From Enterobacteria phage GEC-3S, in sequence record HE978309: DNA of 64,000 nt. The stretch is one strand, 5' to 3'. Made by a program: the position numbers and the translations under genes. The stretch's first letter is position 1. The number at the start of each line of letters is the position of its first letter. Of this stretch, positions 3,133 through 59,416 are shown in pieces. The notes under the pieces were generated by a model that was not told the origin of the DNA, searched no databases, and saw only the letters and a list, made by a program, of their open reading frames with translations.

Positions 3133-4635
3133 ATGCAAGATATTAAAATTCACTTTCTGAACTACTCCCATGTTCAAATTGAATGTAGCGATTCAATTTT
3201 ATTAGAAATGCGAGATTATTTTAGTTTTGAAGTCGAGGGAGCAAGATTTCAAAAAAGATTTAAGTATGGTGGATGGGATGGGCGTATTCGTCTTTTAGAT
3301 TACAACGGAAAGCTGCCAATCGGTCTAACTAAAACCGTGGGAATCTTCGCTAAAAATATGGGCTATAGCGTATGGGTAGATCCTCGCTTATTCGAAAAAG
3401 AACAAGTTACAGAAGAAGAAATTACAAAATGGTGTAATGACTTAGAATTATATTCCGGTGCTAACAGGATCACCCCTCATTGGTATCAATCAAAGGCCGT
3501 CTTTGAAGGTATTCATCATAAACGCCGTATGTTAGTTTTGCCTACGTCCGCTGGTAAATCTGCGATTGCTTGTATGTTGTCTCGTTGGTACTTAGAGAAT
3601 TACGAAGGGAAAGTGTTGATCATCGTTCCTACCACGTCGCTAGTGCTGCAAATGCGTGATGACTTTGTTGATTATCGCCAGTTTCCTTATGAAGCAATTC
3701 ATACTATCATGAGCGGTACTAGTAAACACGTAGGTGATCGCCTGATCGTTGTTAGTACGTGGCAATCTGCATGTAAACAACCTAGTGAGTGGTTCCAACA
3801 ATTCGGGATGGTTATTGTTGACGAATGTCACAAGGCTACTGCTAAAAACCTGCTAAACATCGTTACTGATATGGATCATTGCCAATTTAAGATCGGCATG
3901 ACTGGTTCCCCTCGTGACGGGAAAGCTAACATGATGCAGTATGTCGGGCTTTTTGGTGATATTTCTAAGATCGTGAGTATTGACCGCCTGATGGAAGAAG
4001 GTCAAGTGACAAAACTGAAAATTAACTGCCTTTTCCTTCGTTATACCGATGAGGAATGTAGCGCGGTTAAGGGGCGAGAATATGCGGAAGAGATCAAGTA
4101 TATTACATCTAACCCACGACGAAATAAGTTTGCTTGCAATTTGGCGCTAAAACTCGCTAAGAAGGGCGAAAACGTATTCCTGATGTTCCGCAATACTAAG
4201 CACGGAAAACTTATGTATGATGCGTTACAGAAGGTACACGACAAGGTTTATTATATTGACGGTGGAGTTAAGACAGAAGAACGTGATGAATTTAAGAAAA
4301 TGGCGGAGGGTGACACCGGGATCATTTGTGTTGCGTCTTATGGTGTGTTCTCTACTGGTGTTTCAATTAAGAATTTGCACCATGTTATTTTCGGTCATCC
4401 AGTGAAGGAATCAACTATCGTTCGTCAGAGTATCGGTCGTGCATTGCGTAAACATGGTTCGAAAGACATTGCAACGGTCTGGGATCTTATAGATCATCTG
4501 GCGGTGAAGACAAAGAGCAAGAATGCTAAGAAACAGTTTAGTCACCTTAATTATGCTCTTAAACATGCCCTTGAAAGAATAAAAATTTACAATACCGACC
4601 GATTCGAATATGTCACGAAAACCATCGAGATTTAA
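3133..4635 (+). CDS. uvsW: UvsW DNA/RNA helicase
   Basis: ORF track 3118..4635 starts at GTG; the ATG at 3133 gives MQDIKIHF..., matching T4 UvsW as I recall it; Walker A LPTSAGKS and helicase motifs. Confidence 0.93.
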   Translation: MQDIKIHFLNYSHVQIECSDSILLEMRDYFSFEVEGARFQKRFKYGGWDGRIRLLDYNGKLPIGLTKTVGIFAKNMGYSVWVDPRLFEKEQVTEEEITKWCNDLELYSGANRITPHWYQSKAVFEGIHHKRRMLVLPTSAGKSAIACMLSRWYLENYEGKVLIIVPTTSLVLQMRDDFVDYRQFPYEAIHTIMSGTSKHVGDRLIVVSTWQSACKQPSEWFQQFGMVIVDECHKATAKNLLNIVTDMDHCQFKIGMTGSPRDGKANMMQYVGLFGDISKIVSIDRLMEEGQVTKLKINCLFLRYTDEECSAVKGREYAEEIKYITSNPRRNKFACNLALKLAKKGENVFLMFRNTKHGKLMYDALQKVHDKVYYIDGGVKTEERDEFKKMAEGDTGIICVASYGVFSTGVSIKNLHHVIFGHPVKESTIVRQSIGRALRKHGSKDIATVWDLIDHLAVKTKSKNAKKQFSHLNYALKHALERIKIYNTDRFEYVTKTIEI

Positions 4636-6030: not shown

Positions 6031-6656
6031 AGAATTTTAAGGAAACTGGATAGACCTGATAATGAATATACACCAGATTCCCCGCATTCGCACTTGATCG
6101 GTACTGCCAGCGTGATTTGATTTCTTGTTAGCTCGTCGATCACTTCTTCCACTTTATCCGTGGTAAGCATATCCAGCACGCGGTCAAAGTCCTGTGCGTT
6201 CAGGTCGTCTATATTGAATTGCTGATCGCCGATCACGATATATTCGATACATGCAATTACCATCTGCATAATATCAACATCTTCTGTAAACTTAGGTTGA
6301 CGAAACTTGATTTTTACTTGTCCTAAGTCCAGAATATACGGTTCAACTTCTGGTATCTGTGTGCGTGAAACATCAAGAGAGTATACTTTCTCTTTATTGC
6401 ATACACCACACACCCAAGTAGCATCAATTTTCATCTTATTGAGGCTGTGACACCATAAGAGAAGAAAAATATATTCTGCTTCGCATTTCTCTAGCTCTAA
6501 TGCATTGACCCCCGTACATTCATGTATGATCTCTATAACAACCTCTGACAGCTTGCCAGTCTCTTTTGCTGCTACCAGTTTTTGAAATTCGCCGAAGGTG
6601 AAAGCACGGGCGTGTATCAACTTTTCGCCTAATTGGATCTTGAAAAAGTATTGCAT
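6027..6656 (-). CDS. 26: gp26 baseplate hub protein
   Basis: 209 aa; position between 25 and the divergent gene 51, start overlaps gene 25. Confidence 0.7.
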   Translation of the reverse strand: MQYFFKIQLGEKLIHARAFTFGEFQKLVAAKETGKLSEVVIEIIHECTGVNALELEKCEAEYIFLLLWCHSLNKMKIDATWVCGVCNKEKVYSLDVSRTQIPEVEPYILDLGQVKIKFRQPKFTEDVDIMQMVIACIEYIVIGDQQFNIDDLNAQDFDRVLDMLTTDKVEEVIDELTRNQITLAVPIKCECGESGVYSLSGLSSFLKIL

Positions 6657-6698
6657 AATAAAACACCCTTTATAAACACATAGAATTATTTAGTATTT

Positions 6699-6706
6699 TA
6701 TAAATA
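6699..6706 (+). promoter_or_regulatory. T4-type late promoter (TATAAATA) for the 51-27-28-29-48-54 block
   Basis: exact TATAAATA about 20 nt upstream of the gene 51 start. Confidence 0.55.
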
Positions 6707-6726
6707 CCCGAAAGGGGGATTATACC

Positions 6727-7497
6727 ATGAATATTATCAGAATAAAACTACCGGAAGGTGTGCAGAGATTTAAACCATTCACGGTAAAAGATTATAGAGA
6801 TTTCCTTCTGGTGTCAACTGAAATTAAGATGAATCCAGAAGAAGAACAAACGATTCTTGATGAGCTATTAGAAGAAATATATCCAGACGTAGATCCGGCA
6901 TTTCGTGAATATATTTTCCTGAATGTCTTTACTAGTTCAATTGGTAAAACTAAGATACCGCTTTGTTTTACTTGCCCGACTTGCAACAAAGAAAGAAAAA
7001 TGTTGCTTAACTTACAGATTGAAGCACTAAAACCAATCGTTCTAGAGGCCGCAGGGCTTAAAATAACTTTCCGGTATGTTAAACCATCAACCGACTATGC
7101 AAAAACGTTTCTGGATGCGATAGAGCGTGTATCTGATGGTATTAATGATTATCTATGGACTGAATTACCGGAAGAAGTTAGAGAACAGGTTATCGATTCA
7201 ATCTCATTTGCTGAATTTGAAGAAGTTGTCAAGCAGATGCACACAATCAAGATCGAACAAAAGATATCTTGTTGTGAAAGTCATGACCTGAAATACATAG
7301 GTCTTCTTCCATTATTCAAATTGTTGTTGAATCCAGATGAGTTATTCATCTTTTATCGAATAAACCATCTATTGGCAAAATCAAATTATTCTATCAGTGA
7401 TCTTATGGATATGTTACCGGTCGAGAGAAACATTGCACTGACACTGGTCGAGAAAGACGTAAAAGAGGCAAATAATGCAAAGAACGGGGTTTCCTAA
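6727..7497 (+). CDS. 51: gp51 baseplate hub assembly protein
   Basis: 256 aa; synteny, divergent from 26; CxxC...C motif. Confidence 0.7.
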   Translation: MNIIRIKLPEGVQRFKPFTVKDYRDFLLVSTEIKMNPEEEQTILDELLEEIYPDVDPAFREYIFLNVFTSSIGKTKIPLCFTCPTCNKERKMLLNLQIEALKPIVLEAAGLKITFRYVKPSTDYAKTFLDAIERVSDGINDYLWTELPEEVREQVIDSISFAEFEEVVKQMHTIKIEQKISCCESHDLKYIGLLPLFKLLLNPDELFIFYRINHLLAKSNYSISDLMDMLPVERNIALTLVEKDVKEANNAKNGVS

Positions 7498-8257
7498 TGT
7501 CTCAATAAAACTTTATGCTGTTAATAACGTAACTAGCATGATTGATGCCATCTATAAGGAAGTTCCTTTATGGAAACCTACTATAAAGGGTGATAACGTT
7601 GTTATTCCTCGTTGTCCGTGGGTTAGTACCATAAATGACTATATGGATTTTGTGAGGGCATACGGGCAAAGCGTAGAAACAGAGTCTTTCGTGTATTGCT
7701 GGGAAGATTTTGATGGTATAACGATAGCTGGACACGATACAATATTAAAAAATGAGCCAATACCAGCTATAATCTGTGAGCCTAGACTCATGGGGCAATT
7801 TATTGATATGTCGCCTAATCTGATGGTTTTTAATTTCGAGTGGCAGACTAAGAGCAATGCTAAAGTTAAAAATTCATTTAGCAATGTGACATACACAACT
7901 ATTGATTTTGTTACTAAGCAGTATAATAAAATTATTGTTGGTAATGGGGATAACATTGCACACTTTGTTCATGGTGGCGCTTATGGCGATTTAACTTATA
8001 AGAATGCGTTTTTGGAAGGTTCTAAACTTGCCACAATAGAACAATATGATTCATATGCTACCGCCGTGTGTCACGGTAATTTTTCGTTGCGCCCCGGTAT
8101 GGTTATTCGATTCTTTGATGAGAAGCAACAAGCACGCAATGATTTTATTGTTGACGAAGTGGTGCATGAAATTAGCCGAGAGCAATCATTAACTCACCTG
8201 TATATGATCGGTAACAGCGAAGAATTACAGGAAGTCAAATTTGAAGGTAAGATATAA
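7475..8257 (+). CDS. 27: gp27 baseplate hub protein (short form, 260 aa)
   Basis: N- and C-terminal similarity to T4 gp27 (PNVSIKL..., ...VDEVVHEIS...THLYM); synteny between 51 and 28. Confidence 0.7.
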   Translation: MQRTGFPNVSIKLYAVNNVTSMIDAIYKEVPLWKPTIKGDNVVIPRCPWVSTINDYMDFVRAYGQSVETESFVYCWEDFDGITIAGHDTILKNEPIPAIICEPRLMGQFIDMSPNLMVFNFEWQTKSNAKVKNSFSNVTYTTIDFVTKQYNKIIVGNGDNIAHFVHGGAYGDLTYKNAFLEGSKLATIEQYDSYATAVCHGNFSLRPGMVIRFFDEKQQARNDFIVDEVVHEISREQSLTHLYMIGNSEELQEVKFEGKI

Positions 8258-10505: not shown

Positions 10506-11563
10506 TGAAAATTAGTGTTATCAATGATGCCGTTGATAGCTTTAAAGCGGGGGTTAAAACCTCCGCTGGTTTTACCTCAAAAAATAAAGGAAAAACATTA
10601 ACCGCTCAATTCCCCGCTGAACGTGCTAGCGGTAATGATGCTAGCGGTTATTATATCAACGACTTATATAATAATGGTCTGTTATTCACTGCATACGATT
10701 ATACATCTCGTACTACTGGATCGTTGCGTGATTTCAGGAAAAAGAAAAATGTTGCTAGCGGTTTTGGCGGTAGCGTTAATATCGCTGGTTTTGATTTAAA
10801 TTTGGGAGGGAGAAATGCTGCATTTGACCGCGAGGCAATTGCTAATATTCTTCTTCCTCGTAGTCAATCTGACGTTGACGCTGCTAGCCATAAGTTTAAT
10901 GATGTTGGTGAATCTGTCATTTCTCGCGGCGGTGGTACTTTAGGCGGTGCTCTTTCTAATATGGCATCTACTGCCGTTTTTGGTGGTATCGAAAGTATTA
11001 CTGGTGGATACCTTGCCGATCACGGTGAACAGATTTATAATACTGCGCGAAGCATGTATGCGGGTGCTGACGCACGAACTAAAAACTACGTATGGCATTT
11101 AACCCCACGTAGTATTGAAGACCTTCGCAATATTCTGATCATATACGAAACGTTTTTAGAATTGTCTTATGGATCTAGTGGTATTTCCAGCACCGCAAAA
11201 GAATTAAAAGCGGAAGTTGATGCGTGGTATAAAAATACACTATTGAGAAAATCCACCCCAGAGGAAGCGAAGAGAAATGATACTCTGTTTGAAGGGATCA
11301 CCGATTTTCTATCAAACGCAATTACTGTATCTAACCCGACAATATGGATGATCTCTAACTTCGGTAAGCGTACATCGTTTGAAGGGCGTAGCGATGCATT
11401 TGGTCCCGCTCAGATCTCAAGTGTACGTCTGGACAAGTCGCCGGATGGTAAGTTTAATGGCCTTGCTATTTCTCCTAACTTGCCGAGTACCTTTGTTCTG
11501 GAAGTATCATTTAGAGAGATCTTGACACTTTCCCGTGGTACTATATTTGGGAGTGCGGTATAA
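10505..11563 (+). CDS. 48: gp48 baseplate tail-tube cap
   Basis: 352 aa, synteny. Confidence 0.8.
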   Translation: MKISVINDAVDSFKAGVKTSAGFTSKNKGKTLTAQFPAERASGNDASGYYINDLYNNGLLFTAYDYTSRTTGSLRDFRKKKNVASGFGGSVNIAGFDLNLGGRNAAFDREAIANILLPRSQSDVDAASHKFNDVGESVISRGGGTLGGALSNMASTAVFGGIESITGGYLADHGEQIYNTARSMYAGADARTKNYVWHLTPRSIEDLRNILIIYETFLELSYGSSGISSTAKELKAEVDAWYKNTLLRKSTPEEAKRNDTLFEGITDFLSNAITVSNPTIWMISNFGKRTSFEGRSDAFGPAQISSVRLDKSPDGKFNGLAISPNLPSTFVLEVSFREILTLSRGTIFGSAV

Positions 11564-12495
11564 TGTTTGATTTAAATGATTTTAACGAACAAGCCGCTAA
11601 CCTTGACTTTCAGCGATCCAACTTATTCAGCGTGGCATTTGCCACCACTCCAAGTAATAAGACACAAGCGATCCTAGAAAGTATGGGCGGTGCGGTATAT
11701 GATATTATACCAAATGCATTAAATGACTATTTCGGGATTACTCGTGGTGATTATACTGACGCATTAACAAATCTTGCTGTACAGGGTGTTAGGCGTGCTG
11801 TTGATTCATCCGGTGTCAAAAAGTATCTTTTAGGTGCAATGTCATCCCGCGTAGTTCAATCTCTTCTGGGGCAATTTGATGTTGGTACATATGCGCTTGA
11901 CTGGTTCAATATGGCATATAAGACAAGCGGTCTTCTGGTGTATGCTGTTAAGGTTCCAGAAAACAGATTGAATTATGAAATGGACCGTAACCACAATGCG
12001 CCAAACATTCGAATTACCGGACGTGATTTTGATCCGCTTGTGTTGAGCTTTAGAATGGACTCTAGCGCATCAAACTATAGAGCAATGCAGGATTGGGTTA
12101 ACTCAGTAGAAGACCCCGTCACAGGGCTTCGTGCGCTTCCTGTTGACGTTGAAGCGGATATTCAGGTCAACTTACATAACCGAATGGGAGTCCCTCACAC
12201 GATTATGATGTTTAATGGTTGTGTTCCTGTTGGTGTGAGTGCACCGGAATTAACCTATGAAAACAACAACGAAATTACAACATTCGATGTTACTTTCGCA
12301 TATCGTTCTATGCAAACTGGTGCTGTAGGAGAGCAAGCCGCGCGAGAATGGATTGAGGATAAGGCAATAAACGCAATAACAAACACTTTCGGCAATAATT
12401 TACTTGATAGTGGGTTATCTGCTGCTGGTAATGCTTTATCGCGTCTAAATGGCGTTGGTGGGCGTGTGGTGAATACTGTCACTAACTGGTTCTGA
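11563..12495 (+). CDS. 54: gp54 baseplate tail-tube initiator
   Basis: 310 aa, synteny. Confidence 0.8.
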   Translation: MFDLNDFNEQAANLDFQRSNLFSVAFATTPSNKTQAILESMGGAVYDIIPNALNDYFGITRGDYTDALTNLAVQGVRRAVDSSGVKKYLLGAMSSRVVQSLLGQFDVGTYALDWFNMAYKTSGLLVYAVKVPENRLNYEMDRNHNAPNIRITGRDFDPLVLSFRMDSSASNYRAMQDWVNSVEDPVTGLRALPVDVEADIQVNLHNRMGVPHTIMMFNGCVPVGVSAPELTYENNNEITTFDVTFAYRSMQTGAVGEQAAREWIEDKAINAITNTFGNNLLDSGLSAAGNALSRLNGVGGRVVNTVTNWF

Positions 12496-12504
12496 TAAGC
12501 GAAA

Positions 12505-12533
12505 GGCGGGGATTATCCCCGCCTTTTTATTTT
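12505..12533 (+). terminator. rho-independent terminator after gene 54
   Basis: hairpin GGCGGGGAT-TATCCCCGCC followed by TTTTTATTTT. Confidence 0.6.
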
Positions 12534-13012
12534 GCTAAATCATTGCAATATTTTAGTGCCTTAGTTTGAAATTCTGCGCTGTTAAGTTCTTCATAACGGT
12601 CATAATCACCGTTTAATGCTGCCTTTCTTGCTTCTTGCTCTATCTGCATGTCAGACATGATAATACAGCGATCCCGTGCTTTCATCTTCTCAAGTTGTTT
12701 AGACTCTTCTTTCTGCTTGCGCAATTCTTCTTGACGCTTCTTTTCTTCTTGTTCTTTCTCTTCCCGCGCTTCTTTGATTGCATCCTTGAACATCTGCGTT
12801 TGTGGTGCTAAACCAACTTTAACGCGATCCACGTCTCGACGTTCCATTTTAGAAATAAAGCATGATTCGATCTGGTCATCACTTGCATATGCTGCTTTAC
12901 ATTCACGAAGCAAGAAAACCGGATCTGATTTAGCATTCATCATAGCTTCCATGTTGGTACAACCAGTAAGCATGAATGCAGCCGCAAGACCAATCAGTTT
13001 AATCATTTTCAT
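12527..13012 (-). CDS. phage lipoprotein with coiled-coil region
   Basis: 161 aa; signal peptide ending in lipobox LTGC; Lys/Glu-rich repeat region. Confidence 0.6.
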   Translation of the reverse strand: MKMIKLIGLAAAFMLTGCTNMEAMMNAKSDPVFLLRECKAAYASDDQIESCFISKMERRDVDRVKVGLAPQTQMFKDAIKEAREEKEQEEKKRQEELRKQKEESKQLEKMKARDRCIIMSDMQIEQEARKAALNGDYDRYEELNSAEFQTKALKYCNDLAK

Positions 13013-13833
13013 TTAGTCACCTCACCGAAAATTGTAAATTGTCTACGATTCTCATCGCCGAAAGATTCTACTACGTCGTTTACCTTGACGCAAGTCCCGC
13101 GCGGTAAAATTACTTCACATTCGCAAGGGTTCCATGCAATTGATCCAACAACAAAACCTTTATGATCTTTTACGTCAATTACCCATGATACATTACAAGA
13201 ATGTTGCATCTTTCCGGTCATGGATTCATATCGATTCTCACAATAAAGGCTAGTGCTATTTGAAAGCCAGCCTCCAAAGATGATTGGTGTCATGCTGGTC
13301 GATACAAAGTTTTTAAAGGTAAACTCCTTATCTTCAATAATACGCTCTATTGTCTGAATGTCAAGATGTTGACCGCGATAAAGAGTACCGTTTAACTTTT
13401 CGGTTTTATCCATGACACAATCCATCAAATCAACAATCTCTGATATCTCATCGGTCATGTCTTCTTCCCCTAAGAGAGCACCATTTACCCATTCGTATTG
13501 TTCAGACACATAATCACAGATTGCATTATATTCTGCTGGGGTTATGTTGTTATGTTTGTAATGTTTGAATACATTATCTCCAAAGTCTTCGGAGTGTACT
13601 TCATACATCACATTAATGATTTTCTTGACAAATCCATAATCTTGTGTCTCGCGCTCAAGGAAGCGGATAACCTTCACATAATCATCAAAGTTAATCTGAT
13701 CGCTGATCATCTCAGTGATCATGTAACCATTAATCCCCTCAATGTCATATGTTTCGATGTAATTATCCATACGTTCCATCATTGATTCGCGTGATTCTTC
13801 TGAAAGACGAAAATCCTGTAATTTCTTGAACAT
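13009..13833 (-). CDS. ADP-ribosyltransferase, short Alt/Mod-like paralog
   Basis: 274 aa; R (LYRG), STS (FVSTSM) and ExE (CECEV) ART motifs aligned with the Alt C-terminus. Confidence 0.7.
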   Translation of the reverse strand: MFKKLQDFRLSEESRESMMERMDNYIETYDIEGINGYMITEMISDQINFDDYVKVIRFLERETQDYGFVKKIINVMYEVHSEDFGDNVFKHYKHNNITPAEYNAICDYVSEQYEWVNGALLGEEDMTDEISEIVDLMDCVMDKTEKLNGTLYRGQHLDIQTIERIIEDKEFTFKNFVSTSMTPIIFGGWLSNSTSLYCENRYESMTGKMQHSCNVSWVIDVKDHKGFVVGSIAWNPCECEVILPRGTCVKVNDVVESFGDENRRQFTIFGEVTK

Positions 13834-13862
13834 TTTAAACCTCCCATATAACAGAAAACGGG

Positions 13863-13904
13863 GCTAGTATAAAACTAGTCCCCGTTTGAGTCAACCATTA
13901 TTTC
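13863..13904 (-). promoter_or_regulatory. terminator-promoter cassette between alt and the alt-like gene
   Basis: minus strand TTGACT, 17-nt spacer, TATACT; 11-bp stem-loop spanning spacer and -10. Confidence 0.4.
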
Positions 13905-13911
13905 TTAAAAA

Positions 13912-15963
13912 TTACATTTTAAATTTATCTGGCATTGCGTCTACAGATACCAGATCAGCGATAAGCTGACGTAGAGTTGCCTTATCTGCTTTCTTACGTT
14001 CGGTTTTAGCTTCGCTAATGAAGCTGGAGAAAGACAGGTCAGAAGCAGGTTTAACAACACCCTCACGGATGAATGCATCACCGTCCGCGATCATCTCGCC
14101 AGATTCTTGTAATGCTGCCAGTTCACTTTTGTTCATAATATGTGCCTCAATGTAATAAGTTTCTTGTGAATCCGTAGATGCCGTAGCACGAGTTACCGTA
14201 TCAAAGGATAACACAACACCGCGAGGAAGTAAAATCTCGCATTCTTTGTAAGCAAATGCTTTGTTACCTACTGGCAATACAGGGATGTTTTCCGCGCCAG
14301 CAATGGAGAAAGCAACATTAGCGCCACCTTCACCGCGAGATCCAGCCATAGAATCTACCCCAGCAACGGCACTAGCCACGTTTGCATTCCAGCCGCCAAA
14401 AATGTTAGGTGCAAGGGAAGTGCTCACGTAGTTTTTAAAGTAAAACGCTTTTTGCTTACGTGCAGTTTCCCACATTTGAGACCGGAAGTCCATACCACGA
14501 TACAGAATAGTACCCGGATCAAGTTTAACGCCATAGTTAGAGAAGGCATTATCCAGTGCATCGCACATCTTGACCAATTCTTCTGGATCTGCGATTCCCT
14601 CAAACTCTTCCAGCTTGCGATCAGTTAGGAAGTTGTTCATATTGATGTATGCTGCATCGGCATATTCGCTCAACACAAAACCTTCCGCGCCCGGCAGATC
14701 AAGATCAATATCTGCCATCATTTCACCCATGTTGCTAGCAATTGCTTCAAACATACCGGAAGCAACATTACGAAGGGCATCGGTTTTAATCTGGGTGATA
14801 TGACTACGCAGCATTTCAGCTTTTACATCTGCTGGCATAGACTGGTCTACTCGATCCATTGCCAGGGCGGTGATCTTGTTTTCGAATACTTCCTCGCTCA
14901 TGATTTCTTTTAAGCGTTTGATTGATGCTGCGATAACTTCCGCAGACAACGGATCATATTGATCCTGAACTTTTACCAGTTCGCTTACTGCGTATTTTGC
15001 ATCGGCTTCGCTTTCAAAAATAGTACGCATGAAACCATAGCGAGTGATAATATCACTTGTCCAGTCATTCAGAGAACGGGCGGTTGAACGTTCTAAGGCT
15101 TGACGGTCAATCAGAGTATTAAACTGTTTCTTAGGTTCTGCTTCGGTGATATCTTCTTCCGGTTTAAGATTAATTTTTTCTGGATGATTCACATAGTCGC
15201 TGTTATAGGTCGCTTGAGTTTTCAGCATTTCTTCTTTAGTCAAACGAGATTTAGCCGCTACGCGTTGTTCTGCTTCCGCGTTTCGTTCTTCTTCTGACAC
15301 AAGACTAGCCGCATATGCCTCATCTTTAGTCAGAGATTCACCAGTAGCCTTAGATACCCAGCGATCACCTAAATCACTTTCTACTTTAGTGAACAAGGAT
15401 TCATCAAGTTTAATCCCTTTAATCTTATCAATCGCCATCCCGCGACGCTTGACAACAACTAAAGCGATCTTTTTGCTGGTCATTACTTCCTGCTGGAATA
15501 CTTCAAACTTCGGTGTACGACGCACCAAACGCTCTATAACGCGCTTAACCAGTTCGGTCTTACCTTTCATGCGGGATACGTTAAAACGGAACATAACAGC
15601 GTCTAATTGCGCTTTACGGGCTGTTTCCATAACCACATCAAACGCACTTGCCATAACTGCAATCGGGTTATCGCCTAGACCATTTTTAAGCTGTACAATA
15701 CGACCGCTTTTGTTCATTTCGCACAGTACAACATGTGCGGTCTTGTCGCCCATACGAATGATTTTAGGTGTTTTGTTGGTGAAGTTACAAAGACGGACAA
15801 TCACATCTTTATCGCGTGTCTGTACTGCAAAAAGCTGTTTAGGATTCTGCTTAGGCTTTAAGCACTGTACCGGAGCAATACTGCCAAAGTTTTCTTCCTC
15901 TTCCGTCAACAGCCATTTCTCGAAAGATTCAATCATTAGATCGTCGATTTCTAAGTTAAACAT
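13912..15963 (-). CDS. alt: Alt ADP-ribosyltransferase
   Basis: 683 aa (T4 Alt is 682 aa by my recollection); ART motifs ILYRG, YVSTSL, KECEIL; position after gene 54. Confidence 0.85.
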   Translation of the reverse strand: MFNLEIDDLMIESFEKWLLTEEEENFGSIAPVQCLKPKQNPKQLFAVQTRDKDVIVRLCNFTNKTPKIIRMGDKTAHVVLCEMNKSGRIVQLKNGLGDNPIAVMASAFDVVMETARKAQLDAVMFRFNVSRMKGKTELVKRVIERLVRRTPKFEVFQQEVMTSKKIALVVVKRRGMAIDKIKGIKLDESLFTKVESDLGDRWVSKATGESLTKDEAYAASLVSEEERNAEAEQRVAAKSRLTKEEMLKTQATYNSDYVNHPEKINLKPEEDITEAEPKKQFNTLIDRQALERSTARSLNDWTSDIITRYGFMRTIFESEADAKYAVSELVKVQDQYDPLSAEVIAASIKRLKEIMSEEVFENKITALAMDRVDQSMPADVKAEMLRSHITQIKTDALRNVASGMFEAIASNMGEMMADIDLDLPGAEGFVLSEYADAAYINMNNFLTDRKLEEFEGIADPEELVKMCDALDNAFSNYGVKLDPGTILYRGMDFRSQMWETARKQKAFYFKNYVSTSLAPNIFGGWNANVASAVAGVDSMAGSRGEGGANVAFSIAGAENIPVLPVGNKAFAYKECEILLPRGVVLSFDTVTRATASTDSQETYYIEAHIMNKSELAALQESGEMIADGDAFIREGVVKPASDLSFSSFISEAKTERKKADKATLRQLIADLVSVDAMPDKFKM

Positions 15964-19687: not shown

Positions 19688-19695
19688 TAATAAAA

Positions 19696-20004
19696 TCATT
19701 TAGACAAATAATCATTCAGTGCAATCCGGTCGGCGTATGCTGGTGTTACGTCAATCGCAATCACTTTAACGCGTGCTTTCTTGCGACCTGGGTTTTCACG
19801 TAACCAGTGCTCATGACCGTGAACATTTTTATACTGCGATGCTTCTTCGAAGGTACGGATCGGACCTGGGTAATCAGCGTAAAGGATCTCTAGATCTTCG
19901 GTGATGTAAAAATATACATCGTAATTGCTGTTCTCTAGCTTAAGCAGAGACTTTCGGAACATTGGGAGATTTTCGCGGGTAAATTCAAAGATATTATCTT
20001 TCAT
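19696..20004 (-). CDS. HxHW-family small protein, paralog 1
   Basis: 102 aa; YDVYFYITEDLEILY...HGHEHW...VIAIDV. Confidence 0.55.
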   Translation of the reverse strand: MKDNIFEFTRENLPMFRKSLLKLENSNYDVYFYITEDLEILYADYPGPIRTFEEASQYKNVHGHEHWLRENPGRKKARVKVIAIDVTPAYADRIALNDYLSK

Positions 20005-20026
20005 AGTATTATCCTCAATAGTTGGA

Positions 20027-20049
20027 TGAAAAGGGGCGTTAACGCCCCC
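20027..20049 (-). terminator. hairpin, weak terminator
   Basis: GGGGCG-TTAA-CGCCCC with a short U-run; near-copy of the 16005 hairpin. Confidence 0.3.
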
Positions 20050-20054
20050 ATATA

Positions 20055-20342
20055 TTAAAACAGTCCTTCCTGTACACCGTAGTAGAGTTCGTCGCTGATA
20101 ATTTCATTAATGCGACGGTGTGCATATTCCTGATTTGCGAAGTTGTCAGCAAGTTCTATTTTAGTTTCGCCGTCATGAGTCCATTTAGTGATAACTTTAC
20201 CATCTGCAAATTTGAAGTTGAACTCTTTAGCTACTGCATCGCGTACCAGACGTGCAAACTTATTGTTGCGGATTGCATTGTCGGTTTCGTGTGCAGCGTG
20301 AGCAAATTTGTTAACTTTCAGAGTGATAGTGATGTATGCCAT
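20055..20342 (-). CDS. hypothetical early protein (95 aa), related to 23382..23693
   Basis: ORF track; shared segment ...RNNKFARLVRDAVAKEFNFKF vs ...LIREVRKALAKEFNTKI. Confidence 0.5.
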   Translation of the reverse strand: MAYITITLKVNKFAHAAHETDNAIRNNKFARLVRDAVAKEFNFKFADGKVITKWTHDGETKIELADNFANQEYAHRRINEIISDELYYGVQEGLF

Positions 20343-20385
20343 AATTTGATTCTCCTAGTTAGAAAGTGTATCTCGTTTCGATGGG

Positions 20386-20427
20386 GATATTATGCTATAT
20401 CCCCGATCCGGTGTCAACACTTTTTAT
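20386..20427 (-). promoter_or_regulatory. early promoter cassette (PeSL-like)
   Basis: TTGACA; -10 CATAAT lies inside hairpin GGGGATAT...ATATCCCC. Confidence 0.5.
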
Positions 20428-20702
20428 AAAATAATTTTTTGATATTTTTCTATGATGTTCGTGTAAGTCACATCAACCGCTAGCACTGTTGCTTCGAATC
20501 CACCGTTTAGCCAATGGCTATGATCATGGTCGTGAAAGAAACCTAGACCAGTACGAAGACCTTCTTTATATTCTGCGCGTACATTCAGTTTGTCGTCGAT
20601 AAACAGATAAAACCATGAATTTTTACTAGGATTGATGATACAACCTTTCAGATTAGGGAGAATATCACGACTAAGAATAAACTTATCACCTACTTTGAAC
20701 AT
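20424..20702 (-). CDS. HxHW-family small protein, paralog 2
   Basis: ORF track 20424..20717; start ATG with GAGGA RBS; WFYLFIDDKLNV...HDHDHSHW...VLAVDV. Confidence 0.55.
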   Translation of the reverse strand: MFKVGDKFILSRDILPNLKGCIINPSKNSWFYLFIDDKLNVRAEYKEGLRTGLGFFHDHDHSHWLNGGFEATVLAVDVTYTNIIEKYQKIIL

Positions 20703-20706
20703 AATA

Positions 20707-21027
20707 TTAGTCCTCACTTATAAGGTCAAACCAATTGTTTTTCGCATAATGCTTAATGCGTGCTTGATCTGCTTCCGCTGGTGATAGATTCCATGCAACC
20801 ACTACAACTTCTGACGCATCGTCATCAGTTTCCGATACCCAATGATTGTGATTCATACAGTTATTTGCTATCGAGTGAGCAAATGATTTCATCACTGGAG
20901 ACGTATAATCATAGTAACGGATTTTCAGATTTTCATCAACATACAAATAGATCGTATAAGGTTTATATTCAGTAACAAGTAACAGACAGTTACGCAATTC
21001 TGGGAAAATCTTTTTAGTTAATTTCAT
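20707..21027 (-). CDS. HxHW-family small protein, paralog 3
   Basis: 106 aa; YTIYLYVDENLKIRY...NHNHW...VVVAWNL. Confidence 0.55.
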   Translation of the reverse strand: MKLTKKIFPELRNCLLLVTEYKPYTIYLYVDENLKIRYYDYTSPVMKSFAHSIANNCMNHNHWVSETDDDASEVVVVAWNLSPAEADQARIKHYAKNNWFDLISED

Positions 21028-21229
21028 ATTCTAGTTCTCCGTAATACACGGTAATCCATTTTTCTTCATATTTTGTATCTTTCCAGCACACAATACCGTT
21101 TACTGTGCAATCTTTGGAATTGACGAATGATTCATATTGTTCCGCATCTTCCATCATTTCATGAGCGGTCTTTTCATCGAATATATCGCAGATCGCTTTA
21201 TATGCTCGATAATCTTTAAATTTGCTCAT
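21014..21229 (-). CDS. small protein, tandem duplicate (copy 1)
   Basis: MSKFKDYRAYKAICDIFDEKTAHEMMEDAEQYESF..., paralog of the adjacent upstream gene. Confidence 0.5.
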   Translation of the reverse strand: MSKFKDYRAYKAICDIFDEKTAHEMMEDAEQYESFVNSKDCTVNGIVCWKDTKYEEKWITVYYGELEYEIN

Positions 21230-21231
21230 AA

Positions 21232-21441
21232 TTAACACCACTCAAGAGTTTTTGAAAACACATCTATCCATTGTTGAGTATATGCGGTTTCTTTCCATGA
21301 TACAATACCAGTCGAATAATGGTTTTTGTTTCCAGAAAAGGACGGGCATTTTGATGCATCTTCCATCATCTTTTCGGCGAACTCTGGTTCGTATACTCGC
21401 AAGATCTGTTGATATGCTTTATAATCTTTAAACTTACTCAT
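21232..21441 (-). CDS. small protein, tandem duplicate (copy 2)
   Basis: MSKFKDYKAYQQILRVYEPEFAEKMMEDASKCPSF... Confidence 0.5.
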   Translation of the reverse strand: MSKFKDYKAYQQILRVYEPEFAEKMMEDASKCPSFSGNKNHYSTGIVSWKETAYTQQWIDVFSKTLEWC

Positions 21442-21722
21442 AACAACACCACCGATACATCGTAATCATTCGCGACCTTATCGGCTTCTTCAACCGACAT
21501 AATACCTTCTGCGACAATTGGCATAGGGTGATCGTGATTCCACCAATGGTCATGTATATCAATTTCAGTTTTGCCGGAAAATGAATCATGTTTGACGTTT
21601 TTCACTTTATACCCGATGTGACCGTCGTGGTCAATAAAGATATAGTTTCCGAAAATCGGTGTCTGTAAAATCATACCGAAAAATTTTTCTTTGTTGTTCG
21701 GGTCGAGTGTAATCATTTTCAT
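21438..21722 (-). CDS. HxHW-family small protein, paralog 4
   Basis: 94 aa; NYIFIDHDGHIGY...HDHWWNHDH. Confidence 0.5.
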   Translation of the reverse strand: MKMITLDPNNKEKFFGMILQTPIFGNYIFIDHDGHIGYKVKNVKHDSFSGKTEIDIHDHWWNHDHPMPIVAEGIMSVEEADKVANDYDVSVVLL

Positions 21723-21734
21723 AATATATTCCTC

Positions 21735-21914
21735 TTAGAAAGGGATGGTCATTTCTTGAGCTTGTACATTCTCGTTAGGATTAAACTTCATCCAACCGAT
21801 ATTGTCTACCAGCATATGCACATTTTTATCATATCCTACGTGAGTAGTCAACACTAAATGTGCTTTACATTCAACGATGATTTCCATGTACTTCTGAACT
21901 TCGATAGCTTTCAT
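21735..21914 (-). CDS. hypothetical small protein (59 aa)
   Basis: sub-60-aa ORF MKAIEVQKYMEIIVECKAHL...; GGAGAATCAAA RBS; promoter cassette upstream. Confidence 0.4.
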   Translation of the reverse strand: MKAIEVQKYMEIIVECKAHLVLTTHVGYDKNVHMLVDNIGWMKFNPNENVQAQEMTIPF

Positions 21915-21943
21915 TTTGATTCTCCGTTTGTTGTCTTGATGGG

Positions 21944-21985
21944 AGTATCTTACTACTCCCTTTAATCATTGTCAACGATTATTTG
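21944..21985 (-). promoter_or_regulatory. early promoter cassette (PeSL-like)
   Basis: TTGACA, spacer containing GGGAGTAGTAAGATACTCCC hairpin, weak -10. Confidence 0.45.
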
Positions 21986-22146
21986 TTAATTTCTGGTGCG
22001 TTGCTCGGATAGTAACCTTCTTTAACACCCAGATATTTTGCAACCATTCCGGTGATCTTCTGTGCTACTACGATATCGAATTTCAGGTAGTCTTCACCGT
22101 GGTTTGCTACAATGTATGCTTCGCATTCTGCTTTAGTCTGGAACAT
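21979..22146 (-). CDS. small protein, copy B of a duplicated gene (55 aa)
   Basis: ORF track 21979..22212; start at MFQTKAECEAY... with GGAGAATCAAAA RBS; duplicate of 18703..18870. Confidence 0.5.
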   Translation of the reverse strand: MFQTKAECEAYIVANHGEDYLKFDIVVAQKITGMVAKYLGVKEGYYPSNAPEINK

Positions 22147-22177
22147 TTTTGATTCTCCTATATCTCGTTGGTATGTG

Positions 22178-22219
22178 TGTAGTATAGGGGATCGGTGATC
22201 CCCTGTCAACAACTTTTTT
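22178..22219 (-). promoter_or_regulatory. early promoter cassette (PeSL-like)
   Basis: TTGACA, spacer GGGGATCACCGATCCCC, TATACT. Confidence 0.55.
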
Positions 22220-22526
22220 ATTCTTCATCTTCATTTTTATCTTTATATGCGTACTTCATAAATTTGTCTGCTACTTTGTCCGCGTTTTCAGGTTCTACGT
22301 CTGACGCTAGGACAACAGCTAGTTCGGTTTTGTCGTTTCCGTCATACCAATGATTATGAGTGTCGTTTTCTTCGATATAAAACGAATCATTTGGAGTTGT
22401 TCGACAATATACGTCTAAATTCCCATCGATATAAAAGATCCAATCCGAATACAAAATGATTGCTTTAGCCAGATTTTTATTGTCTCTTACAAAAGGTTCC
22501 GCGACAAATAGCTTAGTTTGTTCCAT
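22218..22526 (-). CDS. HxHW-family small protein, paralog 5
   Basis: ORF track 22218..22583; start at MEQTKLF... with GAGGAAAA RBS; WIFYIDGNLDVY...HNHW...AVVLASDV. Confidence 0.55.
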   Translation of the reverse strand: MEQTKLFVAEPFVRDNKNLAKAIILYSDWIFYIDGNLDVYCRTTPNDSFYIEENDTHNHWYDGNDKTELAVVLASDVEPENADKVADKFMKYAYKDKNEDEE

Positions 22527-22542
22527 AATATTTTCCTCAAAA

Positions 22543-22734
22543 TTATACAGCTTCGTAAACTTCCCAATGTTCAGCGCCAACACGCTTAACGAAAAGGTTT
22601 TCTTTGATGTTATTCATAAACGTCTGGATAGATTTAATGCGGTTGGAAGGTTTCCAGTCTTCGTTGGCATTGCGGCGATACATAATAACATTACCAGTTC
22701 GCTTATATTCAGCAACCATTTTAAGATCACACAT
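22543..22734 (-). CDS. hypothetical early protein (63 aa)
   Basis: ORF track; GAGGATAAT RBS. Confidence 0.45.
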   Translation of the reverse strand: MCDLKMVAEYKRTGNVIMYRRNANEDWKPSNRIKSIQTFMNNIKENLFVKRVGAEHWEVYEAV

Positions 22735-22779
22735 AATATTATCCTCAATTTGTGGGAGAGTATTACCCCTCCCAATGAT

Positions 22780-22821
22780 TGTTATGTTATATCACACAAA
22801 ATGGCGTGTCAATGCTTCTTT
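22780..22821 (-). promoter_or_regulatory. early promoter (sigma70-like)
   Basis: TTGACA, 17 nt, TAACAT; overlaps the 3' end of the upstream ORF. Confidence 0.4.
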
Positions 22822-23112
22822 TGCGGTTCCGCTAAGACTTTCGATCTCGCCTGGCATAACATCAACCGCCAGAACTTCGACAACATCCTCGGACCCTAAC
22901 CAGTGAGTATGGCCTTTGTAGAACTTGATAACCAGACTACCTTCCTCATCCCATTTAACGCTATCGCTAGCCCACCACACATCACCGTCGATAAAGTTGA
23001 TGTAAAGCACACTACGCCACATTGAATTAATTACTTTCAATACTGCGCCTTTCATCTCTTCCACGGTATGGTCTTCCATTTTGAAGACCTCACCTACCTG
23101 AACTTTTGCCAT
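22792..23112 (-). CDS. HxHW-family small protein, paralog 6
   Basis: 106 aa; VLYINFIDGDVWW...HTHW...VLAVDV. Confidence 0.55.
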   Translation of the reverse strand: MAKVQVGEVFKMEDHTVEEMKGAVLKVINSMWRSVLYINFIDGDVWWASDSVKWDEEGSLVIKFYKGHTHWLGSEDVVEVLAVDVMPGEIESLSGTAKEALTRHFV

Positions 23113-23129
23113 TTAGTCACCTCTCTTTA

Positions 23130-23309
23130 TTACATAACAATCACGCCAGCCGTTGAAAGTTGATGTTTCAACTGAGCATTTTCTGCTACCGTCAAATCAA
23201 TGATTTCTTGTGACGCTGCAATCATATATCCATTGGTGATATTGTTTTGCATCAGTTCAATGGTTTCTTCGTTGTAGCGGATTTTAGCGATGATTTCGTT
23301 GAAGTTCAT
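23130..23309 (-). CDS. hypothetical small protein (59 aa)
   Basis: sub-60-aa ORF MNFNEIIAKIRYNEETIELMQ...; GGAGAATCAATC RBS. Confidence 0.4.
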   Translation of the reverse strand: MNFNEIIAKIRYNEETIELMQNNITNGYMIAASQEIIDLTVAENAQLKHQLSTAGVIVM

Positions 23310-23341
23310 GATTGATTCTCCTAGTTCGTTTCGGTATGTGT

Positions 23342-23383
23342 GTATTATAGGGGATCTCCCGATCCCCTGTCAACAACTTTTTT
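23342..23383 (-). promoter_or_regulatory. early promoter cassette (PeSL-like)
   Basis: TTGACA, spacer GGGGATCGGGAGATCCCC, TATAAT, conserved leader. Confidence 0.6.
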
Positions 23384-23693
23384 AAAGTTTTTCCATGATA
23401 ACGGTCATAATTACATCTTCTGCGCGAGCGGTCAGATTATCAGCGTCAGCATGTGGGCGGTTGGTTGTTACAGAGATAGCACCGTTGCGCACTGGTTTGA
23501 TATTGATATCAAGATGATCCGCGAAACGTTCGCCAGTTACAGAATGAATTTTGGTGTTAAATTCTTTTGCCAGTGCCTTGCGAACTTCACGAATCAGGGT
23601 AGCGTTTTTCAGTTGGTTCTCCGCGCTCATGGTCTTCTGGGTGTTCATGGTTCCGTCGAAGTCAATCATTGGCAGCGTTACGATGTATTTCAT
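23382..23693 (-). CDS. hypothetical early protein (103 aa), related to 20055..20342
   Basis: ORF track; GGAGAATCAAAA RBS. Confidence 0.5.
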   Translation of the reverse strand: MKYIVTLPMIDFDGTMNTQKTMSAENQLKNATLIREVRKALAKEFNTKIHSVTGERFADHLDINIKPVRNGAISVTTNRPHADADNLTARAEDVIMTVIMEKL

Positions 23694-23736
23694 TTTTGAT
23701 TCTCCGTTTAAGAAAGTGTGTTTCGTTTTGATGTGT

Positions 23737-23778
23737 GTATTATAAGGGGATCACCGATCCCCTGTCAACAACTTTTTG
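23737..23778 (-). promoter_or_regulatory. early promoter cassette (PeSL-like)
   Basis: TTGACA, spacer GGGGATCGGTGATCCCC, TATAAT. Confidence 0.6.
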
Positions 23779-23780
23779 AA

Positions 23781-24257
23781 TTATTTTTCTTGATGCTCGC
23801 GCTCGTACTTTTCGAAATAAAATTCTACTGGCTGATCGTGGATTGAAAGCAAGCCAAAGCGTTTAGCCGCTCGCAATCCCATATTGCGCTGAATGTACTT
23901 CTGGAAGTTCTCGCGTATACACTTACGCCAGTATTCTAAGCCCATACAGCTTTTATAAAGATTGCATTGCACACACGCCGGATTCATGTTATCAAGTATA
24001 TCATGTTCCGGTTTATGCATTCCTACAACCTTATACTTCCACGATCCATCATCATTACGGGCAATTCGTCCATTTTCATCATAGACTACCTTTGAGCGTC
24101 GCAATACTGGTTTGATATGGTCTGCGTGCCAGCGATCCCCTAGTTCCTCGCCACAATAGGCACAACGCCCACCGTATTTCATTTTCAGGATCTGGCGTTG
24201 CTCTTTCTTTGACAATTTTTTAGGTTTAGGGGCTTTCGCCCCTTCATTATCACACAT
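23781..24257 (-). CDS. HNH endonuclease (free-standing, homing-endonuclease-like)
   Basis: 158 aa; CAYCG...HADHIKP...N...ACVQCN HNH motif; start overlaps ligase stop. Confidence 0.65.
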   Translation of the reverse strand: MCDNEGAKAPKPKKLSKKEQRQILKMKYGGRCAYCGEELGDRWHADHIKPVLRRSKVVYDENGRIARNDDGSWKYKVVGMHKPEHDILDNMNPACVQCNLYKSCMGLEYWRKCIRENFQKYIQRNMGLRAAKRFGLLSIHDQPVEFYFEKYEREHQEK

Positions 24258-58745: not shown

Positions 58746-58985
58746 GAAATTTTTCGCTTCTTCTTCGGTCATCATCACCGCGCATTCGTGCATAACTTTG
58801 AAAACCGGGTCAATCATATCGAATGCTTCGCGGGACAGTTTACGAGAAGCGATTTTGACTGCTTCAACGTCTTCTACTACAGGAACAAAAACAGTTTTCA
58901 GTTCGTCGAGCATGGCAGCTTCTTTTTCATTCAGGAAGATTCCAGCGTCGTACAATGCAACTTCGATAACATTAACTTTAACCAT
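58743..58985 (-). CDS. hypothetical protein (~80 aa)
   Basis: ORF track 58743..59048; start MVKVNVIE with GGAGGAAATAAAA RBS. Confidence 0.45.
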   Translation of the reverse strand: MVKVNVIEVALYDAGIFLNEKEAAMLDELKTVFVPVVEDVEAVKIASRKLSREAFDMIDPVFKVMHECAVMMTEEEAKNF

Positions 58986-59016
58986 TTTTATTTCCTCCAG
59001 TTCGTTTCGGTATGGG

Positions 59017-59058
59017 AGTATAATACTACCGATGACCTTTGGCGTCAACTAGTTTTTG
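59017..59058 (-). promoter_or_regulatory. early promoter cassette (PeSL-like)
   Basis: TTGACG, 17 nt, TATTAT-like, conserved leader ACTCCCATACCGAAACGAAC. Confidence 0.5.
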
Positions 59059-59249
59059 TTATTTTCGTGAAAATTTTTCGTCGCCTCATGTGCTTTTCTC
59101 TGGGCTTCTTGTTGTGCTTGCTGGCGTGCTGCCTCTTGCGATGTCATAACGGAAGCATTTGCAGCAGTTACAGCCGCGACCATCGCTGCGGTATTAGCAT
59201 TTACAGTACATGCACTAGCCAGCAAAGCAATTGCAATCATTTTCTTCAT
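59049..59249 (-). CDS. small secreted/periplasmic protein (66 aa)
   Basis: signal peptide MKKMIAIALLASACTVNA; Gln/Ala-rich mature part. Confidence 0.45.
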   Translation of the reverse strand: MKKMIAIALLASACTVNANTAAMVAAVTAANASVMTSQEAARQQAQQEAQRKAHEATKNFHENNKN

Positions 59250-59416
59250 AGTTTCCCCTTTAGGTTATCTTCGACCTTCATCCATTCCGCGTATTCTTGC
59301 GCGGCTACTTTCGGATTTAGTCCGTCTTCGTACATTGCTTCAAGTAATTCTTCGTCGGTGGGCTTATACCCTAGATAAGCCTCCACCTGATTTTTCCAAA
59401 TTTTATACCAGTTCAT
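59246..59416 (-). CDS. hypothetical small protein (56 aa)
   Basis: ORF track 59246..59485; start MNWYKIWKNQ with GGTGATAAT RBS. Confidence 0.4.
   Translation of the reverse strand: MNWYKIWKNQVEAYLGYKPTDEELLEAMYEDGLNPKVAAQEYAEWMKVEDNLKGKL

Follow-up and report, generated by a model that had tools for sequence, protein, structure and literature searches.

The 64,000-nucleotide (nt) stretch of Enterobacteria phage GEC-3S DNA analysed here (sequence record HE978309; the whole stretch is called the window below) carries on its minus strand a gene for a 161-amino-acid (aa) predicted outer membrane (OM) lipoprotein, the mature domain of which is swapped as a cassette between near-identical genomes while its export signal stays constant. 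Tentatively, at a probability of roughly 0.38, we read the product as an early, OM-anchored periplasmic factor that would exclude superinfecting phages or block their entry, and not as an Llp-type mask of the phage's own receptor. Because the gene is universally retained, predicted to be early and OM-anchored, and cassette-swapped, it is a concrete, cheap-to-test candidate for the control of access to the infected cell. The open reading frame (ORF) and its lipoprotein signal were already present in public annotation; new here are the intragenic cassette polymorphism behind a constant export signal and the exclusion of the adhesin, the tape measure protein, the holin/antiholin, and the spanins as obvious partners. 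The features at the center of this reading are:

12527..13012, minus strand: lipoprotein gene, 161 aa, matching phrog_16112 (E 8.6e-109, unknown function), from the ORF listing.
13019..13023, minus strand: Shine–Dalgarno sequence GAGGT, 6 nt 5' of the lipoprotein ATG, read directly from the sequence.
12959..13012, minus strand: signal peptide codons 1–18, with the lipobox at 12959..12970, from the sequence and a PROSITE PS51257-style scan.
12538..12980, minus strand: replaceable cassette, from codon 12 to approximately the third-last codon, from base-level alignment, a 100-nt identity profile, and BLAST.

A preliminary description of this DNA had proposed a 161-aa ORF for a phage-encoded lipoprotein between the baseplate block and the ADP-ribosyltransferase (ART) genes, and all of this stands: the ORF is ATG-started and occupies exactly positions 12527..13012 of the minus strand, gp54 lies on one side and two ARTs of family PF03496 on the other, and the lipoprotein assignment is borne out by the lipobox, an OM-compatible +2 residue, four invariant cysteines, and the LipoP-based annotation in phage W115. 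The gene is the orthologue of RB49p182 (NP_891753.1), annotated as "hypothetical protein" in RB49, and the 1-kb region around it is 98–99% identical to 57 records of Krischvirus, that is, of RB49-like T4-type phages (RB49, Phi1, JSE, Sf20, MIZ2-6, and others). The W115 orthologue (97.5% identical) is called "putative lipoprotein" by its authors, who relied on LipoP, and the KFS-EC orthologue is named "Lipoprotein" in UniProt; Arbiol et al. (2010; PMC2839356) give ORF182 no more than a passing mention.

A full-length copy is found at the same place in 57 out of 57 Krischvirus records of the phage collection. Given this retention, the ratio of nonsynonymous to synonymous substitution rates (dN/dS) of 0.11–0.23 within allele types (pairwise Nei–Gojobori), and the GAGGT located 6 nt 5' of the ATG, chance does not account for the ORF, which is confirmed as a real, selected gene. 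That it is instead a dispensable ORFan without a selected function, carried along in a hyperplastic region, might be suggested by its position at the edge of a plastic region rich in early promoter/stem-loop elements (PeSLs; see below) and by its having been left unannotated in E26; but the complete retention, the low dN/dS, the conservation of four cysteines and of the predicted fold at about 25–30% identity, and the full length of the swapped alleles make this scarcely credible, and the conservation data largely refute it.

By sequence and fold searches, the family appears tiny and confined to phages, with no relative of known function. The lipoprotein had no match above threshold among Pfam, NCBIfam, and PADLOC models, and a search of Pfam, PHROGs, NCBIfam, PADLOC, and PDB sequences retrieved only phrog_16112 or noise at the level of the signal peptide, on which the sub-threshold matches (Cor, TraV, a type VI secretion system immunity lipoprotein, and Lpp/OprI) mainly align. 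An indexed (word) search of 5.8 billion proteins yielded 41 clusters, nearly all Krischvirus-like, and an exhaustive hidden Markov model profile search of 1.84 billion representatives yielded 11 matches; the sole long match, P0049, is a eukaryotic tyrosine phosphatase and was rejected as spurious. No match to the lipoprotein was found in plasmids (tblastn), and the scan of IMG/VR gave just two near-identical loci. With the predicted structural model as a query, Foldseek found nothing informative in PDB (best E 0.74) and, in BFVD, matched only the lipoprotein family itself. The distant family members are all lipoproteins of 155–174 aa with the same four cysteines, and, where the contig is long enough, they lie in the order small ART, lipoprotein, convergent gp54, gp48, and gp29. 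In divergent relatives, identity is 24–42% for the lipoprotein, 30–74% for the small ART, 35–53% for gp29, and 69–93% for gp54 and gp48; the block contains few genes less conserved than that of the lipoprotein, whose identity is lower than that of the small ART in most of these relatives.

Residues 1–18 of the protein, MKMIKLIGLAAAFMLTGC, comprise an n-region with Lys2 and Lys5, an uncharged h-region (G8–M14), and the lipobox L15-T16-G17-C18, and thus the signal peptide ending in LTGC, proposed earlier, is found in full. The PS51257-style rule (basic n-region, uncharged h-region, lipobox [LVI][ASTVI][GAS]C, Cys at position 15–35) recognizes the 161-aa protein, and, among all ORFs of the complete RB49 genome, it passes two real genes, those of the o-spanin PseT.2 and RB49p182. 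In the alignment of homologues, residues 1–19 are unchanged between alleles even where the mature part is about 30% identical. At +2, the window has Thr19, and every other allele has Ala, Ser, or Val (most orthologues Ala); none has Asp there. In Escherichia coli, the +2 rule governs Lol sorting of lipoproteins, those lacking Asp at +2 going to the OM; as Asp is never found here, sorting to the OM by the Lol system is predicted. Taken together, the sequence features make it well supported that the gene encodes a genuine exported lipoprotein, for which modification by signal peptidase II (SPase II) and Lgt is predicted.

A second small ORF with a lipoprotein-like signal is present in the window (59049-59249, minus strand; 66 aa). 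After the signal, MKKMIAIALLASAC..., comes a helix-like tail rich in Ala and Gln. The segment around this ORF is unmatched at 90% identity or higher in RB49 (58757-59258) and E26 (59099-59253), no PHROG was matched, and the ORF may either have arisen by chance or encode a further variable exported protein.

Among the 57 Krischvirus genomes, three allele classes are found at the lipoprotein locus:

Type A: 49 records, including the window and RB49.
Type B: two records, Whisky and JK32.
Type C: six records, AV108, PTE-Eco09, E26, 011D4, G37-3, and PHB13.

The proteins of type A are 25–33% identical to those of types B or C, and types B and C are about 47% identical to each other. In four type C phages (E26, 011D4, G37-3, and PHB13), about 440 nt are replaced, both flanks being 97–100% identical to the window, and the cassette is the sole diverged DNA in the region compared (the BLAST gap against E26 is at window 12544-12979). 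In Whisky, JK32, AV108, and PTE-Eco09, identity to the window is 96–100% at the DNA level through both ART genes, drops to about 35% in the codons of the mature domain, and stays reduced on through gp54, gp48, and gp29. The left breakpoint lies inside the signal-peptide codons, after codon 11 in type C and after codon 19 in type B, and the right one is at the stop codon and terminator, coinciding with the following element:

12501..12527, either strand: G+C-rich hairpin common to the convergent gp54 and lipoprotein genes, from a terminator scan and folding.

This hairpin folds at −19.6 and −20.8 kcal/mol (z about −4.4) and is a clean intrinsic terminator on the plus strand; on the minus strand the same stem is followed by a weaker T-tract. 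Within the gene, type C shows mosaicism of its own: the E26 group shares its last 30 residues with the metagenomic variant P0038, and AV108 has different ones. Full-length alleles are kept after every swap. From these breakpoints, we infer that homologous recombination exchanges the alleles, its two sites being the conserved codons of the signal peptide and the terminator. The type C gene of E26 is intact (E26 locus 4001-4513; E26 record 112057-112569) yet unannotated in GenBank, where a gap is left between ART and gp54.

One possible partner of the swapped domain was suspected by analogy. Ltp of phage TP-J34 blocks DNA injection, its target being the tape measure protein, and, like the krischvirus lipoprotein as predicted, it is lipid-anchored and helical; it excludes phages after adsorption. 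Unlike the latter, Ltp comes from a temperate phage of a Gram-positive host (Streptococcus), and the krischvirus protein has no Pfam match. In the first comparison (Whisky, JK32, AV108), the divergence ran from the lipoprotein through gp54 and gp48 to the tape measure/hub protein gp29, whereas E26, 011D4, G37-3, and PHB13 combine the type C lipoprotein with gp29, gp48, and gp54 that are 97–100% identical to those of the window. As type C thus occurs with both gp29 types, a strict link between the lipoprotein and gp29 is refuted, the association is explained by linkage, and co-variation with the tape measure was rejected. In Whisky, the annotation divides the gp29 region (Whisky locus 6517-8195) into two ORFs, of 537 and 1113 nt, and the gp29 of the window aligns over 63% of its length only; either the gene is truly split or frameshifted, or the sequence contains an error.

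The receptor-binding side was considered in the same way. T5 Llp and the Cor proteins of T1, phi80, and N15 are OM lipoproteins that exclude superinfection by inactivating FhuA. A lipoprotein of this kind would inactivate the phage's own OM receptor, here OmpA, from the periplasmic side, and thus would stop both adsorption of superinfecting phages and loss of progeny on cell debris. Like Llp, the krischvirus protein belongs to a virulent coliphage and is a lipoprotein for which early expression and a place in the inner leaflet of the OM, on the periplasmic side, are predicted, and weak Cor matches were obtained (phrog_1119 at E 0.008 and 0.0015; NF047972 at 13.4 bits). The RB49-like phages indeed use OmpA and O antigens, via the adhesin gp38 (PMC9569957). 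But the phrog_1119 match at E 0.008 is aligned over aa 1–45 only, essentially the signal peptide, beyond which there is no homology to Llp or Cor, and the NF047972 score, against a cut-off of 31, comes from the distant member P0047 only. OmpA and the O antigen are, besides, very abundant targets, which also counts against masking. While llp is directly downstream of pb5, the receptor-binding protein gene of T5, the krischvirus gene is not beside that for its receptor-binding protein (gp38 is about 65 kb away in RB49), and the two do not co-vary: gp38 of the E26 type (at least 97% identity) accompanies a lipoprotein of type A in nine records, of type B in JK32, and of type C in E26, 011D4, and PHB13, and Whisky, of type B, has an RB49-like gp38. 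The published comparison of adhesins likewise places Whisky close to RB49 and Cognac (both type A), with Brandy (type A) the most divergent (PMC9569957); co-variation with gp38 was rejected on these grounds. Finally, the mature part of 143 aa is predicted to form a helical rod, whereas Llp is simply described as a small lipoprotein. The version in which the phage's own receptor is blocked is therefore disfavoured, and we consider it rather doubtful.

In order to find any other partner, the complete genomes of E26, the sole non-A genome compared in full, and RB49 were searched for segments without a match of at least 90%. There are 12 such segments; 11 out of 12 are homing endonucleases, indels, or small cytoplasmic ORFans, and no exported gene besides the lipoprotein cassette is found among them. 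Identity between E26 and RB49 is 100% for the holin T, 95% for the antiholin RI, 98% for RI.-1, and 98 and 97% for the spanins PseT.2 and PseT.3, respectively; it is 99% for both gp5 and gp27, 96% for gp29, 100% for the small ART, and within 95–100% for gp48 and gp54, as opposed to 33% for the lipoprotein. Because the lipoprotein alone is swapped while the lysis and entry proteins are near-identical, the mature domain can be swapped by itself and, as far as this comparison goes, does not need a partner of matching allele from its own genome.

These identities also bear on a role in lysis or lysis inhibition, in which the lipoprotein would act in the periplasm together with the holin T, with the antiholin RI, or with the spanins and tune the timing of lysis or the disruption of the OM. 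An OM lipoprotein with periplasmic cysteines is typical of o-spanins (lambda Rz1, T4 PseT.2) and resembles u-spanins (T1 gp11), and RB49 keeps rI, rI.-1, t, and rIIA/B, so that lysis inhibition presumably operates. However, RB49, Phi1, and JSE already have members of the T4 PseT.3/PseT.2 spanin families elsewhere (both genes are at 128.6–129.3 kb in RB49), and the identity of the lipoprotein as a spanin was rejected: it has no adjoining i-spanin gene, its neighbors being ART and gp54; as it lacks a C-terminal membrane segment, it is not a unimolecular spanin; it is much larger and, by prediction, fully helical; and its promoter is of the early, not the late, type. An allele-specific lysis partner is unlikely since T, RI, PseT.2, and PseT.3 are 95–100% identical between E26 and RB49, and an accessory function in lysis as a whole seems quite improbable.

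The mature domain itself has a distinct composition. Its charged part is

12674..12787, minus strand: ER/K-rich segment, aa 76–113, the middle of a predicted 62-residue helix, from composition and heptad analysis and AlphaFold2.

In this segment, 79% of residues are E, K, R, Q, or D, four are hydrophobic, and 10 i/i+4 pairs are of opposite charge; whichever heptad register is chosen, hydrophobic residues fill at most half of the a/d positions. The preliminary description had called it a Lys/Glu-rich coiled coil; the richness in charged residues is real, whereas the coiled coil does not hold, as, with so few hydrophobic residues and no heptad register, the segment is probably an ER/K-type single alpha-helix. 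Indels among orthologues fall in the middle of this charged helix, as in P0033 and P0034. Besides the lipid-modified Cys18, the same four cysteines are present in every family member, even at about 25% identity. The first two are spaced by 13, 17, or 20 residues, and the last two by exactly 40 in all alleles; given this invariant spacing, two intramolecular disulfides, C38–C51 and C116–C156, are probable, as would suit a protein of the periplasm. Run on the family alignment, AlphaFold2 confidently predicts an all-helical structure (mean predicted local distance difference test score, pLDDT, 88.7) with helices at 31–41, 45–65, 72–133 (unbroken), 137–143, and 146–159, and the same architecture for the Whisky allele of type B, about 31% identical (helix 80–142, pLDDT 85.1). 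The mature 143-aa part is thus modelled as an elongated rod in which a small helical hairpin at the N-terminal end is followed by the helix of about 62 residues, roughly 9 nm long, and by a helical cap at the C-terminal end. The final residues, ...KYCNDLAK, lack hydrophobic character; despite varying residues before it, the terminal Lys is found in eight out of 10 divergent types, the other two (Whisky and P0048) ending in Asn.

An OM lipoprotein signal, a predicted helix of periplasm-spanning length with a length-variable ER/K spacer, and a mostly retained terminal Lys recall Lpp/OprI, and one may imagine an OM-anchored strut, its C-terminal Lys linked or bound to peptidoglycan, that would reset or stiffen the distance between the OM and peptidoglycan. 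A match to the Lpp/OprI family NF040598 was indeed obtained (E 0.017), but with allele B only and at 15.7 bits versus a cut-off of 43; two types lack the terminal Lys; there is neither an alanine zipper nor a heptad pattern; and the end domains, which we take to be locked by disulfides, are absent from Lpp. The tail of Lpp is a YRK motif, from which that of the krischvirus lipoprotein differs. Hence, a strut is very unlikely.

The reading of the protein as an early product depends on the upstream region, where the gene forms a bicistron with the small ART:

13009..13833, minus strand: first gene of the bicistron, 274-aa Alt-like ADP-ribosyltransferase (small ART, RB49p183), from PF03496 (E 4e-16) and phrog_15144.
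13856..13894, minus strand: PeSL-type early promoter/stem-loop in the spacer between Alt and the small ART, from a promoter scan (10/12), the sequence, and folding.
13912..15963, minus strand: Alt, 683 aa, from PF03496.

The lipoprotein ATG (13010..13012) overlaps the small ART stop codon TGA (13009..13011) as ATGA. The 78-nt spacer between Alt and the small ART contains, in this order, an AT-rich stretch with the Alt stop codon TAA, promoter boxes with a stem-loop, GGGAGG, and ATG. The boxes are TTGACT for −35 (13894..13889) and TATACT for −10 (13871..13866), separated by 17 nt, and the polyG/polyC stem-loop at 13856..13887 (stem ACGGGG/CCCCGT; −19 kcal/mol, z −4.3) overlaps the −10 box. In RB49 and phi1, a PeSL has been defined as an AT-rich sequence with the upstream stop codon, sigma-70 boxes, an overlapping or adjacent polyG/polyC stem-loop, a Shine–Dalgarno sequence, and a start codon (PMC2839356), and the spacer agrees with this definition in every element. 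Since the PeSL is directly upstream and no late-promoter motif (TATAAATA) is found nearby on the minus strand, the pair would be transcribed early from a sigma-70-type promoter; probably, the PeSL also ends or attenuates Alt transcripts and restarts early transcription for the ART and lipoprotein genes. As in the PeSL cassettes of RB49 and phi1 (Arbiol et al., 2010; PMC2839356), the bicistron is preceded by a PeSL and followed by a polyG/polyC stem-loop, and the variation arises via homologous recombination at short conserved sequences. Unlike these cassettes, where a whole ORFan between two PeSLs is the unit of exchange, here the unit is the gene interior: the promoter, ART, start codon, and export signal stay, and the mature domain changes.

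The bicistron raises the question whether the two products work as a module, the lipoprotein being needed for, regulating, or protecting against the upstream ART. Their co-occurrence and order are strict, an orthologue of the small ART at 95% identity or higher being present in exactly the same 57 records, and the stop/start overlap is seen in the window and in several relatives. Gene order is, however, generally frozen in T4-type genomes, and the predicted compartments differ, as the ART has no signal peptide whereas the lipoprotein is exported. Since the ART is constant (100% identity) while the lipoprotein is swapped for an allele of 25–33% identity, there is no co-evolution of the two, and a module of this kind is highly improbable.

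Sharing an early-type operon with a host-takeover enzyme would fit with counter-defence or conditioning of the envelope, in which the lipoprotein would bind or inactivate a host or prophage component, e.g., a stress sensor, a protease, or a prophage exclusion protein. The polymorphism would fit variable host or prophage targets, and no cis-encoded partner is found. On the other hand, no PADLOC, Pfam, or NCBIfam model matched, nothing indicates a particular target, and a protein made after entry cannot help its own phage past an entry barrier; we regard such a role as improbable. If the lipoprotein were either a peptidoglycan-linked strut or a host-directed factor, it would represent a new viral way to re-engineer the Gram-negative envelope.

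To our knowledge, superinfection exclusion in T4-type phages is understood only via T4 Imm and Spackle (Sp, 61.3), the latter a small periplasmic protein blocking the incoming tail lysozyme gp5. In the exclusion that we favor, the krischvirus lipoprotein would fill the role of these two proteins. It would be transcribed early, together with the small ART, from the sigma-70-type PeSL promoter; after cleavage by SPase II and lipidation of Cys18, a disulfide-locked helical rod would be anchored under the OM, spanning much of the periplasm; and the altered envelope of the infected cell would make later-arriving phages fail at or after adsorption. The preliminary description had named receptor block and superinfection exclusion as frequent functions of phage lipoproteins, and, circumstantially, the second suits this one. 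Such a role fits because the lipoprotein is predicted to lie in the compartment that incoming tails must cross, because RB49 lacks a detectable homologue of Imm or Spackle, because fast evolution and exchange between near-identical genomes are expected of a protein facing variable competitors, and because no cis-encoded partner is needed. Specifically, T4 Sp and Imm had no homologue in RB49 by tblastn (best E 0.049, spurious, and 8.8, respectively), and none is annotated. Where T4 has sp (61.3), RB49 has unrelated ORFs (11993-12628 and neighbors: dc1, dc2, RB49p017-019); in addition, dmd is moved to about 59.8 kb, and neither imm nor gene 42 is beside gene 43.

Spackle and Imm are made early by a T4-type phage and act in the envelope. 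The krischvirus lipoprotein, for which the same is predicted, could fill this niche, but it has no sequence similarity to Spackle, the Sp structures were not among the fold-search matches, and Sp has a cleavable Sec signal, no lipid anchor, and a different locus. Judged by sequence comparison, then, none of Llp, Cor, Spackle, and Lpp is homologous to the lipoprotein.

Several observations weigh against such a role. The promoter is a match to the consensus only. Selection within allele types is purifying, and positive selection was not detected in the pairwise Nei–Gojobori analysis, in which the between-type comparisons are saturated. The swap could reflect the general mosaicism of hyperplastic regions in T4-type phages, with no balancing selection. 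That Imm and Sp appear to be missing was judged by tblastn, in which both query proteins are very short, and no functional or localisation study of any family member was found in the literature.

As for what would be excluded, the exchange of at least three very different mature-domain alleles suggests that the target is variable and external, e.g., the entry machinery of competitors, and not a co-evolving protein of the phage's own genome. A more specific proposal, speculative and rather unlikely, makes the locus a polymorphic determinant of exclusion specificity: each allele would block different competing T4-type phages or Krischviruses with particular entry proteins, the alleles would be held by frequency-dependent selection, and the signal-peptide codons and the terminator would serve as recombination arms. 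If true, it would establish a new periplasmic exclusion family in virulent myoviruses, of neither the Llp nor the Spackle type, with "exclusion types" comparable to immunity types. RB49-like phages, which appear to lack both Imm and Spackle, are widely isolated for therapy; should the alleles differ in the phages they exclude, this would matter for the design of phage cocktails, as phages may interfere mutually, and the locus would show how, in nature, a domain can be swapped while the export signal before it stays fixed.

On the other side of the hairpin, the lipoprotein gene is faced by the baseplate block, in which gp29, gp48, and gp54 are all on the plus strand:

11563..12495, plus strand: gp54, from the ORF listing; the block ends at 12495.

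At the equivalent position, T4 has alt.-3, alt.-2, and alt.-1 only, in agreement with the earlier remark that small alt.-x ORFs alone are found there. Homology to alt.-3 was rejected, as this protein has neither similarity to the lipoprotein family nor a signal peptide. T4 alt.-1 and alt.-2 (T4 locus 4066-4451) are annotated as remnants of a duplicated first part of alt, whereas the RB49-like phages have a complete second ART (window 13009-13833), similar to the catalytic, C-terminal portion of Alt. It seems that, after an ancient duplication of alt, each lineage retained a different half.

Two further differences between close relatives were noted elsewhere in the window. At 19688-23796, a 4.1-kb run of small minus-strand ORFs (about 75–120 aa) is matched in E26 but, at a threshold of 90%, not in RB49; this is a hyperplastic ORFan region, differing between close relatives. 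In the gene for gp34, the proximal long tail fibre, a 264-nt stretch (window 46912-47175) is shared by the window and RB49 and absent from E26, the gene being 3435 nt in E26 versus 3741 nt, an in-frame length polymorphism of the fibre shaft.

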